DNA of 24,340 nt, taken from the UHGV virus genome UHGV-1426191, one strand, 5' to 3'. The stretch comes from a virus. A program made the position numbers and the translations under genes. Positions 184-24,340 of the stretch are shown piece after piece (within the stretch, counting starts at the first letter, position 1; the number at the start of each line of letters is the position of its first letter). The notes beneath the pieces were generated by a model. The model was not told where the DNA came from. It ran no database searches and was given only the letters and a program-made list of their open reading frames with translations.

Positions 184-624
184 ATGAAAAAACTAACCTT
201 TGAAATTCGATCTCCAGCACATCAGCAGAACGCCATTCAAGCTATCCAGCAAATCCTTCCAGACCCAACCAAACCAATCGTAGTAACCATTCAGGAACGC
301 AACCGCAGCTTAGACCAGAATCGAAAGCTTTGGGCTTGCCTTGGTGACGTCTCTCGTCAGGTTGAATGGCATGGTCGCTGGCTGGATGCAGAAAGCTGGA
401 AGTGCGTTTTTACAGCAGCATTAAAGCAGCAGGACGTTGTTCCTAACCTTGCCGGGAATGGCTTTGTGGTAATAGGCCAGTCAACCAGCAGGATGCGTGT
501 AAGCGAATTTGCGGAGCTATTAGAGCTTATACAGGCATTCGGTACAGAGCGTGGCGTTAAGTGGTCAGACGAAGCGCGACTAGCTCTCGAATGGAAAGCG
601 CGATGGGGAGATCGGGCTGCATGA
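184..624 (+). CDS. ninB: NinB (Orf-family recombination mediator)
   Basis: Translation MKKLTFEIRSPAHQQNAIQAIQQILPDPTKPIVVTIQERNRSLDQNRKLWACLGDV... is near-identical to phage lambda NinB. Start chosen at ATG 184 (the track start 166 is TTG); GGGGGAGAGGGAAG Shine-Dalgarno upstream. Confidence 0.95.
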   Translation: MKKLTFEIRSPAHQQNAIQAIQQILPDPTKPIVVTIQERNRSLDQNRKLWACLGDVSRQVEWHGRWLDAESWKCVFTAALKQQDVVPNLAGNGFVVIGQSTSRMRVSEFAELLELIQAFGTERGVKWSDEARLALEWKARWGDRAA

Positions 625-1148
625 CTATCAAATCAAATACGCCAGCACACGACAAGGACTGCTGGCAAACGCCGCTTTGGCTTTTTGATGCACTGGATAT
701 TGAGTTTGGATTCTGGCTGGATTCGGCAGCGAGCGACAAAAATGCTCTGTGCGCTCACTGGTTAACTGAGGCCGACGACGCGCTAAATTCTGAGTGGATA
801 AGCCACGGTGCAATCTGGAATAACCCACCGTACAGCAATATCAGGCCGTGGGTGGAAAAAGCCGCTGAGCAGTGCATACAACAGCGACAGACGGTAGTGA
901 TGCTTGTGCCAGAGGATATGTCTGTCGGATGGTTCAGCAAGGCTCTGGAGAGTGTCGACGAAGTTCGCATTATCACTGATGGACGGATTAATTTTATCGA
1001 ACCATCGACGGGGCTGGAGAAGAAGGGAAACAGCAAAGGCTCCATGCTGCTGATTTGGCGGCCGTTCATCAGTCCTCGACGGATGTTTACTACCGTATCC
1101 AAAGCGGCATTGATGGCGATCGGGCAGGGCGTCAGGAGGGCGGCATGA
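621..1148 (+). CDS. phage DNA N6-adenine methyltransferase (Dam-like, orphan)
   Basis: [26 protein letters not shown]... with the catalytic NPPY motif (IWNNPPYSN), typical of phage N6-adenine MTases in nin regions. ATG 621 overlaps the ninB stop (ATGA); the track start 561 is GTG inside ninB. Confidence 0.85.
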
Positions 1149-1321
1149 GGCGACAGCGACGAAGCATCACCGACATCATCTGCGAAAACTGCAAATACCT
1201 TCCAACGAAACGCTCCAGAAATAAACCCAAGCCAATCCCAAAAGAATCTGACGTAAAAACCTTCAACTACACGGCTCACCTGTGGGATATCCGGTGGCTA
1301 AGACATCGTGCGAGGAAATGA
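1145..1321 (+). CDS. ninE: NinE
   Basis: [58 protein letters not shown] matches lambda NinE. ATG 1145 overlaps the MTase stop (ATGA). Confidence 0.85.
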
Positions 1322-1725
1322 CAATGCTTTTAATTCAACCTGGATTTGGACTTAGCATCAAAAAAGGCCACATGTTTGGCGAGAAAGAGTCACAACGAAA
1401 AATGGTGTCTATCCGGTTGCCATTTATCAGTATTTATTGGCTAAACATGGAGGCAACAAATTATTGGTATACATGCGCCAGAGCAGCATTTAACGACCCT
1501 GACTGGTTTGTGAAAAACCACCACGCAGTTCGTCAGGCAAAGAGAAAGGCCAACATGACATACATGAAGGCGTATCAAAAAGCATGGAAAGAACACCGCG
1601 ATCGATACCAACAAGACATGGAAAAGCTTGAATCAGAAAATATGGAATTAAGACGAAAGCTTGGTGAAGCAAAACGAGACATTGATGCTTACAAGCGACT
1701 TTTTAATGGTGAAAGCCATGCTTAG
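1318..1725 (+). CDS. hypothetical nin-region protein with basic region and C-terminal coiled coil
   Basis: ORF between ninE and ninF. ATG 1318 overlaps the ninE stop; an alternative start is ATG 1447 ([15 protein letters not shown]...). The C-terminus [32 protein letters not shown] is heptad/coiled-coil-like. No family recognised. Confidence 0.55.
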
Positions 1726-21813: not shown

Positions 21814-23012
21814 TGGCTCTGAACCTTGATTCTCTCGGTTTATCTGCAAAGGTAACCGCGGAGGGGATCAGTGCGCCTGATTATCAGACGATACTCAGCA
21901 CCCTGATTAGCTATTTTCAGCAGATTTATGGCAGTGATGCCTACCTCGAACCGGACAGCAAAGACGGCCAGATGGTGGCTCTGATGGCGCTGGCGATTCA
22001 TGATGCCAATAATATGGCGATAACTGTCTACAACTGTTTTTCACCGGCAACCGGCTATGGGGCCGCACTGACCAGTAACGTGAAAATAAATGGTATTTCA
22101 CGTAAAGGCGCGACGAATTCTACGGTTGATTTGCTTCTTACAGGAACTGCCGGAACAACCATCATTAATGGCAGCGTGAAAGACAGTAATAATGTGATAT
22201 GGCGTTTGCCTGTTTCAGTGGTGGTCGGCGTGGATGGTACAGTGATGGTGACCGCAACATGTTCCGTCAGTGGTGCAGTGGCGGCGCTGGCTGGAACAAT
22301 CACTGAAATTAATACGCCAACCCGTGGCTGGGTTTCGGTAACTAATCCTGCTGCGGCTACTGTTGGCTCTCCGGCAGAAACTGATGCTGAGTTACGTATC
22401 CGTCAGTCGCAAAGTGTTGCGTTGCCATCAATAACCCCATTTGAAGCACTGGATGGTGCTGTTTCTAATGTTACCGGTGTAACCCGCCACAAACTCTATG
22501 AAAACGATACTGGTTCGGAGGACGATAACGGGTTACCGCCACACTCTGTTGCTGTAATTGTGGATGGCGGTGATGTTACGGATATTGCTCAGGCTATCAG
22601 AGGGAATAAAGGCCAGGGGACAGCCACTCACGGTACAACATCCGTTACGGTTCCGGATAAATACGGCAATCCCCATGTAATCAAATTCTCGCGTTCCAGT
22701 GATGTGCCTGTTTATGCCCGGATTAAATTAAAAGTTTTTACGGGTTATACCTCACAGATAGGGCAGCAGATCCAGCAGGCTATTTCCGACTATATCAATA
22801 GTCTGATGATTGGTGATTCGGTCCTTTTAAGTCGCATTTACTCACCGGCGAATCTTGGCGTGGTGAGTGGCGGGAATGCACGCTATTACGATATTCAGGA
22901 ACTGACGATTGGTAAATCCCCGGGGGCTTTGTCGTCATCAAACATTGATATCAGATACAACGAATCTGCGTCCTGTACCCCGGAAAATATCGTTATAACG
23001 GTGGAGTCATGA
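21813..23012 (+). CDS. baseplate J-like protein
   Basis: 399 aa, TAATG-coupled to the upstream gene; size and position match baseplate J (gp6-like) proteins. Confidence 0.8.
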   Translation: MALNLDSLGLSAKVTAEGISAPDYQTILSTLISYFQQIYGSDAYLEPDSKDGQMVALMALAIHDANNMAITVYNCFSPATGYGAALTSNVKINGISRKGATNSTVDLLLTGTAGTTIINGSVKDSNNVIWRLPVSVVVGVDGTVMVTATCSVSGAVAALAGTITEINTPTRGWVSVTNPAAATVGSPAETDAELRIRQSQSVALPSITPFEALDGAVSNVTGVTRHKLYENDTGSEDDNGLPPHSVAVIVDGGDVTDIAQAIRGNKGQGTATHGTTSVTVPDKYGNPHVIKFSRSSDVPVYARIKLKVFTGYTSQIGQQIQQAISDYINSLMIGDSVLLSRIYSPANLGVVSGGNARYYDIQELTIGKSPGALSSSNIDIRYNESASCTPENIVITVES

Positions 23013-23689
23013 GCAAATACACCGAACTAATCACGAACTACCACGCCACCAAACCTAAATTTCTTGCACATGTTGATCTGATGACCCGGCCGCTTATTGA
23101 TGTTGCGGCTGCCACCAGAGGGCTGATTACTGCATTTGATATTGACTCTGCGGTTGGTGTGCAACTTGACATTCTGGGATTGTGGATCGGACGTAGCCGT
23201 GTTGTCAGCCAGCCTATCTCAGGTGTCTATTTCAGCTGGGATACCGACGGGCTTGGATATGATCAGGGTGTATGGCAGGGACCATACGATCCTGATTCAG
23301 GATACATGTATCTCAGCGATGAAACTTATCGTGTCATTCTTAAAGCGAAGATTGCGATTAATAACTGGGACGGACGGAATGATTCGCTTCCGGCAATTCT
23401 TGATGCGGCAACAGCAGGATCCGGGCTACGAATGCAGATAGTCGATAACCAGGACATGACGATATCGGTCTGGGTCTTTCCTGATACTGATATTTCAGAT
23501 GTATCGCGTGAGTTAATTGCGGCAATTAAACAGGGGTATCTCACAGTAAAAGCAGCCGGGGTATGGGCGGGTGGCATTGAAACACCTTCTGTGGAAACCC
23601 CATCGGAAGGTTCAAAATTTTTTGGTTTTGATATGGATAACGAATTCATCAGTGGTTTTGATGTAGGAGCATGGGGAGTATTACTCTGA
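23009..23689 (+). CDS. baseplate wedge / tail protein I-like (DUF2612-like)
   Basis: 226 aa, ATGA-coupled; lies between the J-like and tail fiber genes, as gpI does in P2-type baseplates. Confidence 0.75.
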   Translation: MSKYTELITNYHATKPKFLAHVDLMTRPLIDVAAATRGLITAFDIDSAVGVQLDILGLWIGRSRVVSQPISGVYFSWDTDGLGYDQGVWQGPYDPDSGYMYLSDETYRVILKAKIAINNWDGRNDSLPAILDAATAGSGLRMQIVDNQDMTISVWVFPDTDISDVSRELIAAIKQGYLTVKAAGVWAGGIETPSVETPSEGSKFFGFDMDNEFISGFDVGAWGVLL

Positions 23690-24340
23690 TGGCGAAAAAT
23701 GACTTTAAAGCGTTTGCAACGGATCGAAATGCCAATGTTATGTCGCAGGAGGAATGGGAAGCGTTGCCTGCGCTTTTATCCGGATTTACAGCAGGGAAAG
23801 CATCCAGTGCGCAAGTCAATAAGGTTATTCGACAGGCCAGCTTTATTGCGGCAGCGCTTGCGCAGTACACAGCCAACAAAAGTGGGCTGGACGTGCTTGA
23901 TGATGGTGACCTGAACGGGTTTATCTCCAAAATGGGAACCGCTTTTGGGAAGGATTTCCAGGCCCTTGATGCCACGCTGACGGCATTAGCTGGGCTGGAA
24001 ACCGGTGCAAATAAACTCCCGTATTTCACTGGAAATGATACAGCTGCGCAGACTGATTTGACTTCTGTTGGCCGTGACATTATCGGGAAAAAGACTATTG
24101 CTGACATTCTCACATACCTTGGTTTGGGAGAAACGATAAATAAAGCCTCCGGAGCTATGCAGAAATCGGCTAATGGAGCTGATATTTCTGATGTATCAGC
24201 CTTCCGAAATGCGCTCCAGTTAGGGACCGCTGCAACACGAGATGTTGGAGCAGATAATGCCTCGAAGTTACTGGATTTAGACAGCTTCAGGTCAATGATG
24301 TCAGGTAATGGCTACATCTACATTCCATGCATTGCGACGA
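23689..24340 (+). CDS. tail fiber protein, N-terminal part (3' partial; ORF runs off the window end)
   Basis: Hand translation from ATG 23689 (TGATG overlap): MAKNDFKAFATDRNANVMSQEEWEALP...DATLTALAGLETGANKLPYFTGNDTAAQTDLTSVGRDIIGKKTIADILTYLGLGE. This resembles the conserved N-terminal region of P2 H-type tail fibers (TLTALAGL...KNKLPYF...LTQVGRDIL). Not in the ORF track because no stop occurs before position 24340. Confidence 0.8.
   Translation, partial: MAKNDFKAFATDRNANVMSQEEWEALPALLSGFTAGKASSAQVNKVIRQASFIAAALAQYTANKSGLDVLDDGDLNGFISKMGTAFGKDFQALDATLTALAGLETGANKLPYFTGNDTAAQTDLTSVGRDIIGKKTIADILTYLGLGETINKASGAMQKSANGADISDVSAFRNALQLGTAATRDVGADNASKLLDLDSFRSMMSGNGYIYIPCIAT

Follow-up and report, generated by a model that had tools for sequence, protein, structure and literature searches.

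The 24,340-nucleotide virus genome UHGV-1426191 raises the question of how genes closely resembling those of phage lambda came to stand on one strand with head genes of a different lineage and with the genes of a contractile tail. A sequence-only reading of this stretch of DNA (the window, by which we mean the whole stretch that was analysed, at its full length) had described it as a join of lambda-identical nin and lysis genes with foreign virion genes. We find that the window very probably comprises the right arm of a lambdoid temperate phage, together with its late operon, that this phage is integrated in Escherichia coli, and that it belongs to a contractile-tailed group that has already been described. 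Phages of this group combine lambda-style regulation with a head of the type found in Salmonella phage SEN34 and a simple contractile tail of the kind known from cyanophage Pam3, Vibrio phage XM1 and Pseudomonas phage E217. The patchwork is real yet ordinary, being textbook lambdoid mosaicism within a described lineage, and is already known.

The order of a lambdoid right arm is present in the window: the nin genes, the late-gene antiterminator gene Q, a late promoter with its terminator, a lysis cassette and the virion genes follow one another on one strand. The map of open reading frames (ORFs) places every accepted gene on the plus strand, with the sole exception of 20120-20485. Annotation drew on Pfam (hmmscan) and PHROG scans, a comparison with lambda, ARAGORN, and sequence matches to the Protein Data Bank (PDB), and the E. 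coli counts given out of 5,426 refer to complete genomes. Patches of 93.6-98.3% nucleotide identity are common to the window and lambda or phage 21, and patches are also shared with Sf6, HK620-like phages, HK544 and mEp phages. The likeness to lambda lies in the logic of the right arm (nin, Q, pR', lysis, virion genes) and in the alleles of NinB, NinE, NinF, S and R, at 85-99% amino acid identity. The window differs from lambda in that Q belongs to another family, the spanins are of another kind, ninC, ninD, ninG, ninH and ninI are lacking, and terminase, head and tail are dissimilar except for a fibre segment common to Stf. At a threshold of E<=1e-3, Q, Rz/Rz1 and all head and tail proteins gave no match to lambda, part of the fibre excepted. 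The collinear relatives E2348/69, SEN34 and yong1 have immunity and replication genes of lambda type, a region that lies outside the window.

A described lineage of contractile-tailed lambdoid phages

Forty-two complete E. coli genomes, including that of the enteropathogenic E. coli (EPEC) reference strain E2348/69, hold one collinear place that covers at least 80% of the window at 94-97% identity (megablast), and the tail block occurs in 383 of the 5,426 genomes. The argW prophage of E. coli O127:H6 E2348/69 (NC_011601, 2.59-2.62 Mb) stands with some 40 similar prophages, and is itself collinear with the window over 87% at 94.7% nucleotide identity. It shares the run NinB-Dam-NinE-NinF, a Q of the Q21 family, the tRNA-Asn/Thr pair, lambda-type S and R, a LysC-type spanin and the whole virion block. 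It differs in retaining DUF1364, RusA and NinH before Q, in a Q of 83% amino acid identity, and in an HNH endonuclease that separates Q from the tRNAs. Further differences are an additional minus-strand gene before the gene for the small terminase subunit (TerS), a TerS allele of 32% amino acid identity, a divergent tape-measure segment, and a baseplate slot with two different plus-strand genes.

In SEN34, of the genus Brunovirus, the early, nin, Q and lysis genes are lambda-like and the same block from terminase to baseplate comes after them, with 73-87% nucleotide and 63-98% amino acid identity to the window; its virions have contractile tails. Its nin, Q and lysis alleles are different ones, no DNA match occurs before 5006, and both the Q21 cassette and the tRNAs are absent. 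SEN34 has been plaque-purified and imaged and was found to be related to lambda-like phages yet to have Myoviridae morphology; Casjens and Grose assigned it to 'temperate 26', a new lambda cluster (PMC5261728). Among the urinary coliphages surveyed in 2026 is a further E. coli isolate that is nearest to vB_EcoM-683R1, has SEN34 as its closest species exemplar and is listed with a tail code for myoviruses; the score of a relative of 683R1 against SEN34 was 31.3% (PMC12945033). Two thirds of the window (66%) align with SEN34, at 81.6% identity, which is a figure for the window only, whereas the Brunovirus threshold of 70% refers to whole genomes. By analogy with the score of the 683R1 relative, similarity probably falls below this genus threshold, and membership in Brunovirus is unlikely.

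Hafnia phage yong1 is likewise collinear, from NinB through (NinG-NinH), a Q21-family Q (72% amino acid identity) and lysis genes to TerS (62%), the large terminase subunit TerL (93%) and the virion block. It has, in the same slot, the same antisense gene, which we call m1 (20120-20485; 97.5% amino acid identity). Its holin, endolysin and spanin are different, it has no tRNAs, two additional genes precede TerS, and its baseplate proteins are only 46-77% identical to those of the window.

What the sequence-only reading had named as decisive against it, a single known lineage collinear over all modules, is found at the level of architecture, and for the E. coli prophages it also holds in the DNA, which is 94-97% identical along most of the stretch. 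The join is not unusual, in that nin, Q, lysis, terminase, DUF1073 portal, sheath and baseplate genes follow one another in SEN34 and yong1 as they do here, and 42 E. coli genomes are collinear.

The same relatives bear on whether the window joins two adjacent elements, or is an assembly chimera; an independent myovirus prophage or tailocin cluster would then begin where a lambda-like remnant ends. The set of relatives does change abruptly at 3647-4954, and the two halves are unlike in base composition, with a G+C content of 47-50% across most of the nin and lysis region versus 52-55% in most virion genes, and dips at variable spots. In the finished genome of E2348/69, however, both 2442-4443, which extends from the tRNAs to the small ORF behind Rz1, and the virion block from 4954 match a single continuous prophage. 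Recombination and immunity genes come first in that prophage, nin, Q, tRNAs, S, R, LysC and the virion genes follow, and intS beside tRNA-Arg closes it. The gap between the two matches is short there and holds a different TerS allele and one additional gene, and the parts are contiguous in other finished genomes as well. In the window itself the gap between Rz1 and TerS is ~230 nt long and contains one small ORF, and no integrase, att-like repeat or host gene was found in it. SEN34, a purified and imaged phage, and yong1 are moreover single phage genomes with the same order, and the cluster is not a tailocin because terminase, portal and capsid genes are present. Two elements or a chimera are thus very improbable as an account of the window.

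An origin of the virion genes outside lambda had been proposed from the letters of the sequence, and is upheld both for the head (a Mu F-like protein, a DUF2213 protein and a DUF2184-type capsid, with no lambda match at E<=1e-3) and for the sheath-like and tube-like tail proteins, which Pfam assigns to the DUF3383 sheath and the KPP10_Orf10 tube. The likeness to XM1, Pam3 and E217 extends over the Pfam families of sheath, capsid, cement, plug, hub and wedge and over PDB chains, the structural proteins of the window matching chains 7KH1, 8HDR, 8HDT and 8ENV (Pam3, XM1-type and E217-type); sequence similarity to these phages is only distant, with E values from 1e-41 down to 1e-7. Their tail order is also present: a sheath of the DUF3383/E217 gp31-like kind, a DUF3277 tube, Dit-like protein, plug, hub, spike, sheath initiator, Baseplate_J and DUF2612. 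By analogy with SEN34, whose micrographs are the basis for contractility, the tail is probably a contractile one.

These families also decide on a further rival, namely that the window is a recent, unusual hybrid of phage lambda itself with a P2-like myovirus. Its attraction is that S and NinB are 99% and 98% identical to the lambda proteins, and that the order spike-W-J-I-fibre mirrors V-W-J-I-H of P2, with a fibre segment 43% identical to P2 H. DNA homology to lambda is nevertheless confined to four patches (153-624, 1152-1318, 1752-1909 and 2648-3647) that total ~1.8 kb at 93.6-97.6% identity, and the DNA of NinB and NinE is nearer to phage 21 (96.6% and 98.3%) than to lambda. NinB, NinE, NinF, S and R are indeed of the lambda family, but to call them lambda-identical, as was done initially, overstates the relationship.

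On the other side of the supposed hybrid, tblastn of all window proteins against P2 matched only the endolysin (57% to K) and the fibre segment (43% to an internal part of H). No match was returned for the V, W, J and I positions, nor for sheath, tube, capsid, portal or terminase. What had been described as a V-W-J-I baseplate is therefore P2-like in gene order but shows no tblastn similarity to P2 V, W, J or I, and a P2 origin of the baseplate was rejected on these zero matches. The supposedly P2 H-like fibre does contain the segment noted above, which is about equally like lambda Stf (45%). As regards the Peduoviridae (P2-like phages), homologues of V/W/J/I, FI/FII and N are absent by tblastn, and only Pfam Baseplate_J scored, a family of which we take P2 J to be a member. 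Pam3, XM1, E217 and KPP10 give their names to the Pfam families of the virion genes, and the architecture is old and widespread, as seen in Salmonella and Hafnia phages and hundreds of E. coli genomes. A hybrid of lambda and P2 is extremely improbable, and is already refuted by the missing P2 similarity and the collinear relatives.

The phage 21-type late-control cassette and the fused Q

The late-gene antiterminator of the window is encoded by ORF 1887-2399, a NinG'-Q21 fusion. The ORF starts at the ninG ATG and comprises eight ninG codons, a GTA codon and Q21 codons 2-162, the junction reading MAKPARRR-V and then Q21 residues 2-162; this bears out a NinG-Q fusion that had been suspected at this place. 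Residues 10-170 of the fusion are identical to Q21 residues 2-162 in PDB 6JNX/6P18, and tblastn gives 98.8% identity to the Q of phage 21. The Pfam scan of the protein returned PF06530 (E=1e-24) and a sub-threshold DUF1133, with no match to PF06323. Q21 (PF06530), Q-lambda (PF03589) and Q82 (PF06323) form three families without detectable sequence similarity to one another (PMC9388147). The earlier assignment to an 82/21 type is accordingly right for Q21 and wrong for Q82, which was rejected on the Pfam result and on the residues identical to Q21. Typing of Q matters for annotation: here it is Q21, with its own Q-binding element (QBE) and tRNA pair.

Compared with phage 21 and E. coli PEC122, the window lacks ~631 bp ahead of Q, corresponding to ninG and a ninH remnant. 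As judged from the alignments, a ~631-bp deletion removed ninG and placed Q21 under the ninG translation start. In all of the 15 best full-length matches listed from the 5,426 genomes, ninG is intact between NinF and Q, and the exact deletion junction is absent as a single piece from these 15; 19 other places of at least 80% coverage lay outside this check.

The altered start of Q invites the view that the prophage is defective and decaying, that late expression was inactivated when ninG was deleted and Q21 lost its start codon, and that the mosaic look is partly decay. The ~631 bp are missing, the native Q ATG reads GTA, and the junction was not seen whole in the 15 best matches. The frame is nonetheless uninterrupted from the ninG ATG, which is preceded by a Shine-Dalgarno-like GAGGAAG, into Q21 residue 2, and the other 161 residues are unchanged. 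Moreover, Q21 residues 1-6 are disordered in both the loading and the loaded complexes seen by cryo-electron microscopy (10.1101/651190), and all virion ORFs are full length in comparison with those of relatives. Because the frame is intact, a Shine-Dalgarno-like sequence precedes it and the replaced end of Q21 belongs to a disordered segment, the fusion Q is probably functional, and we consider a defective prophage unlikely.

Downstream of Q lies a phage 21-type late promoter, pR' (2406-2490), with its -35 element at 2406-2411, the QBE at 2414-2429, the -10 element at 2429-2434 and a start at ~2441. It is followed by a pause element and a terminator (2443-2490), which were placed by alignment to the annotated elements of phage 21. 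The cognate QBE (ATTGAGCA/AATGAGCA) thus lies between -35 and -10 of pR', ahead of the pause element and the terminator. Over the promoter-terminator stretch a single mismatch, at -3, separates the window from phage 21; the -35, QBE and -10 are identical and the terminator is conserved. Next come tRNA-Asn(GTT) at 2491-2565 and tRNA-Thr(TGT) at 2571-2646, both found by ARAGORN and Rfam.

These elements form one unit. Positions 1895-2708 of the window, comprising Q, pR', the terminator and both tRNAs, match phage 21 38995-39808 as a single block of 97.9% nucleotide identity, and in both phages 92 nt separate the Q stop from tRNA-Asn. The proposal that the tRNAs are an insert at a module junction does not survive this comparison, and their independent insertion was rejected on the shared block and spacing. 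From the alignment, the tRNAs are cargo of the phage 21 late-control cassette. Phage 21 resembles the window further in NinB and NinE (96.6-98.3% nucleotide identity). It differs in that it retains ninG, has a pinholin and a signal-arrest-release (SAR) endolysin with embedded Rz/Rz1, and carries a lambda-type siphovirus head and tail.

The far end of the cassette is marked by a linker of ~65 bp (2648-2712) that a three-way alignment shows to be common to lambda, phage 21 and the window. The switch from phage 21-like to lambda-like sequence falls inside this linker, where the BLAST ranges overlap at 2648-2708, and the position of the switch is, on this alignment, the trace expected from homologous exchange at a conserved linker.

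Module exchange and a proposed single late transcription unit

Module-level mosaicism, which had been the central proposal for this DNA, is borne out by block-wise comparison, in the ordinary lambdoid sense. The virion block occurs with other partners: in vB_EcoM-606R2 the same portal-to-baseplate block (95.6% nucleotide identity) is joined to an early region with DNA polymerase and helicase genes and to a different Q, and in FDAARGOS_1289 the same virion block is joined to a Q of the DUF1133 type and a terminase of the PBSX type. Across such genomes the portal-to-baseplate block keeps 95-97% nucleotide identity. The nin and lysis block, for its part, is common at 93-97% to P22-like podoviruses (Sf6, CUS-3, Sf101, IME10) and to siphoviruses (a Lambdavirus, HK544, mEp506). 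As a separate observation on 606R2, positions 38766-42743 of its deposited 'complete phage genome' are ordinary E. coli genes (a yfhH-like regulator, pgpC and tadA), and because these stand at its end, the record includes host flank or is an excerpt of a prophage.

How such blocks could be exchanged is suggested by the late-control cassette. Once Q21 has loaded at its QBE and at the pause site, RNA polymerase resists terminators for tens of kilobases (10.1101/651190). The window encodes Q21 and has the full set of cognate elements (promoter, QBE and terminator), and the genes that follow share one orientation. By analogy with the biology of lambda and phage 21, Q21 would bind its QBE at pR', and the modified polymerase would pass the terminator, and would carry on rightward across the tRNAs, the lysis genes and ~20 kb of genes for packaging, head and tail, all in a single Q-dependent transcription unit. 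The polymerase would presumably also read through internal hairpins, such as that at 20665-20684. Downstream blocks would then need no signals of their own, and any correctly oriented lysis or virion block could be swapped in. Since any co-oriented module would be expressed, the blocks could have separate histories, and virion blocks of siphovirus, podovirus and myovirus type could stand behind near-identical nin and lysis blocks. A single Q-driven late operon would thereby let a contractile-tail module of the Pam3/XM1 type replace the siphovirus module of lambda. The joining itself would have occurred by homologous recombination within the short shared linker at 2648-2712, for which junction alone this is shown; at the other junctions, illegitimate events followed by selection may be supposed.

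Accessory DNA had been expected to accumulate at the junctions, and does so at some of them. The expectation holds for the slot in the baseplate genes and for the gap between Rz1 and TerS in relatives, where the cargo is variable; in the window, this spanin-terminase interval holds one 61-aa ORF only. It does not hold at the NinF/Q boundary, which is a deletion, nor for the tRNAs, which belong to the phage 21 cassette. Three features of the window are private or rare, namely the ninG deletion, the TerS allele and the antisense cassette in the baseplate slot. The second of these, TerS (4438-5055; Pfam Terminase_2), has an amino acid identity of 31-32% to the counterparts in E2348/69 and 606R2 and 62% to that of yong1, whereas TerL is 99% identical to E2348/69 and 606R2. 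Its DNA occurs in 3 of the 5,426 E. coli genomes, and 4444-4953 has no match in E2348/69 or 606R2. The rare allele covers the N-terminal three quarters of the gene (4438-4953). The position of so rare an allele beside a TerL that is 99% identical to common relatives suggests that 4438-4953 represents a swapped DNA-recognition domain.

Several points weigh against reading the window as part of a phage of the described group. No single record in the collections has all of the window's alleles, the best of them covering 83-87% of it, and the exact combination is unsampled there. The left arm and both att sites lie outside the window. Late expression would depend on the NinG'-Q21 fusion, a predicted protein, because the ATG of Q21 itself is replaced by GTA. 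Finally, a simple consensus scan found no sigma-70 promoter for m1.

The window holds little new biology, but it illustrates clearly how lambdoid phages exchange modules, with one junction resolved to a 65-bp linker. In annotation, the labels 'lambda' and 'P2-like' are best avoided for such prophages.

The variable baseplate slot and the remaining genes

A moron island had been listed among the junctions, and a variable slot carrying a minus-strand gene is indeed found at 20101-20664. The slot has no DNA match in E2348/69, 606R2 or SEN34 and differs in every close relative. Its gene m1 (20120-20485, minus strand, 121 aa) occurs in 3 of the 5,426 E. coli genomes, and its counterpart in the same slot of yong1 is gp68, with 97.5% amino acid and ~95% DNA identity. 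The flanking baseplate proteins are only 59-77% identical to those of yong1, and because of this difference m1 is judged, on sequence comparison, to have moved recently between Hafnia and E. coli phages. Like morons in the sense of Juhala and Hendrix, m1 is an extra gene between conserved operon genes that is absent from close relatives and deviates in base composition: G+C is 0.475-0.479 at 19501-21000, versus 0.52-0.55 upstream, and downstream it returns only to ~0.50-0.51.

Upstream of m1, a non-coding stretch of some 200 nt (20486-20686) is ~98% identical to yong1, and is thus better conserved than m1 itself. An Rfam scan of the whole window returned the two tRNAs only, and no known RNA in this conserved stretch. 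The stretch ends, just before the spike gene, in a G+C-rich plus-strand hairpin with a T-run (20665-20684), where homology to all relatives resumes. In the yong1 counterpart of the hairpin, a paired C-to-T and G-to-A change keeps the stem. On the minus strand, a terminator scan found a terminator-like hairpin after m1 at 20105-20090.

The m1 family is small, with 15 homologues in 5.8 billion clusters and an invariant core YIFEFIQNKDVCYSVAA..AWIR. Homologues lie antisense in or beside the same baseplate slot in Klebsiella, in Hafnia, in a metagenome contig and in an Erwiniaceae genome, and in Salmonella by name only. No Pfam or PADLOC match to m1 was found, its PHROG match is weak and of unknown function, its AlphaFold model has a moderate pLDDT of 68.5, and Foldseek against the PDB returned nothing at E<=0.001. 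It is a rather doubtful proposal that m1 and its ~200-nt upstream region form a mobile, slot-specific cassette that is expressed from the prophage and may encode a new superinfection-exclusion or anti-phage factor. As a lead, m1 is the only mildly novel one of the analysis; the NinG'-Q21 fusion is a second small lead.

The remaining genes conform to the order already given. The nin region (184-1894) begins with ninB, a recombination mediator (184-624; Pfam NinB, E=1e-54; 98% amino acid identity to lambda and 96.6% nucleotide identity to phage 21). Here the nin genes are interrupted by a phage Dam-type N6-adenine methyltransferase and by a further ORF, both of which lambda lacks. The methyltransferase (621-1148; Pfam Dam, E=1e-64) is 99% identical in amino acid sequence to that of the E2348/69 prophage and has no real lambda match, lambda having ninC/ninD at that place. 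It is followed by ninE (1145-1321; Pfam NinE; 92% amino acid identity to lambda and 98.3% nucleotide identity to phage 21). The further ORF (1324-1725), in the NinX position between ninE and ninF, matches phrog_1511 (E=9e-86), which is annotated as of unknown function. Over 1327-1717 there is no DNA match in E2348/69, which has a different allele of this ORF; in E2348/69 and PEC122 a DUF2591 NinX allele stands where this ORF is found here. Matches of the ORF's C-terminal half to families of coiled-coil type were weak and stayed below threshold. The region closes with ninF (1718-1894; Pfam NinF; 85% amino acid identity to lambda and 97% nucleotide identity to E2348/69).

In the lysis cassette, the lambda-type holin S (2889-3212; Pfam Phage_holin_3_1) is 99% and the lambda-type endolysin R (3196-3672) 91% identical to the lambda proteins. 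Unexpectedly, hmmscan returned no Pfam match for R at E<=0.01. DNA homology to lambda ends at 3647, 25 nt before the R stop. The spanins, correctly foreseen as non-lambda, match nothing in lambda and represent the overlapped LysB/LysC type. The i-spanin (3656-4048), the equivalent of Rz, has a weak DUF2570 match and an N-terminal hydrophobic segment, as judged by eye from the translation. The o-spanin, of Rz1/LysC type (3867-4211; Pfam LysC, E=3.5e-18), overlaps Rz and continues beyond its stop, and from the translation its likely start is near 3933, with the lipobox LSGC. The 61-aa ORF of the spanin-terminase gap (4192-4377) matches phrog_12811 (E=2e-39) and is 99% identical in amino acid sequence in E2348/69 and FDAARGOS_1289.

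TerL (5058-6680; phrog_2; 99% amino acid identity to 606R2 and E2348/69) is followed by a portal of the DUF1073/Phage_portal_3 family (6680-8146; Pfam, E=1.6e-105) and by a Mu F-like head morphogenesis protein (7998-8771, start codon uncertain; Pfam Phage_Mu_F). The head genes continue with a DUF2213 protein (8786-10018), a cement or minor capsid protein (10023-10526; Pfam XM1_gp53/Phage_cement) and the DUF2184-type major capsid protein (10538-11479; Pfam Major_capside), which matches the Pam3 capsid 8HDT. Connector and neck genes occupy 11525-13584; Pfam, PHROGs and homologues identify them as STY1053-like, DUF4054, Neck1/tail completion, a phrog_939 head protein and a neck terminator. The SEN34 homologue of the phrog_939 protein is annotated with the note 'head-tail adaptor'.

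The tail genes start with the DUF3383 sheath (13588-14733), which matches XM1 gp6 7KH1 (E=7e-41) and the Pam3 sheath 8HDR, and the tube (14744-15184; Pfam KPP10_Orf10/DUF3277). A tail assembly chaperone (15188-15640; Pfam Phage_TAC_15) has, by frame analysis, a probable frameshift extension to ~15836. An open frame without a start codon, at 15601-15836, overlaps its 3' end, and PGAP calls the counterpart a separate 'DUF6889' gene. By analogy with lambda G-T, this frame is probably a programmed frameshift product of the chaperone. The tape measure protein (15818-17803; Pfam PhageMin_Tail) and a baseplate core of Dit-like protein, Pam3 gp18-type plug and E217 gp41-like hub (17803-19756; Pfam) come next. 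A small protein (19759-20100; phrog_3443, annotated as of unknown function) has an N-terminus that looks, by eye, like a signal peptide. It is 98% identical in amino acid sequence to the SEN34 copy, versus ~84% for its neighbours, and the copies of close E. coli relatives reach only 58-67%, a pattern that suggests the exchange of one gene within the tail module.

Beyond the slot, Pfam, PHROG and PDB evidence for the block 20708-23689 (phrog_120; PDB matches to XM1 gp16, Pam3 gp22 and E217 gp44) identifies the spike (20708-21460), a sheath-initiator or W-position protein (21460-21813), the Baseplate_J wedge (21813-23012) and the DUF2612 wedge (23009-23689). The last gene encodes the tail fibre (23689-24340; phrog_11303), of which the N-terminal 217 aa are present up to the edge of the window. 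Homology of the fibre to E. coli relatives stops near 23,900, and over residues 1-146 the protein is 84% identical in amino acid sequence to that of SEN34.

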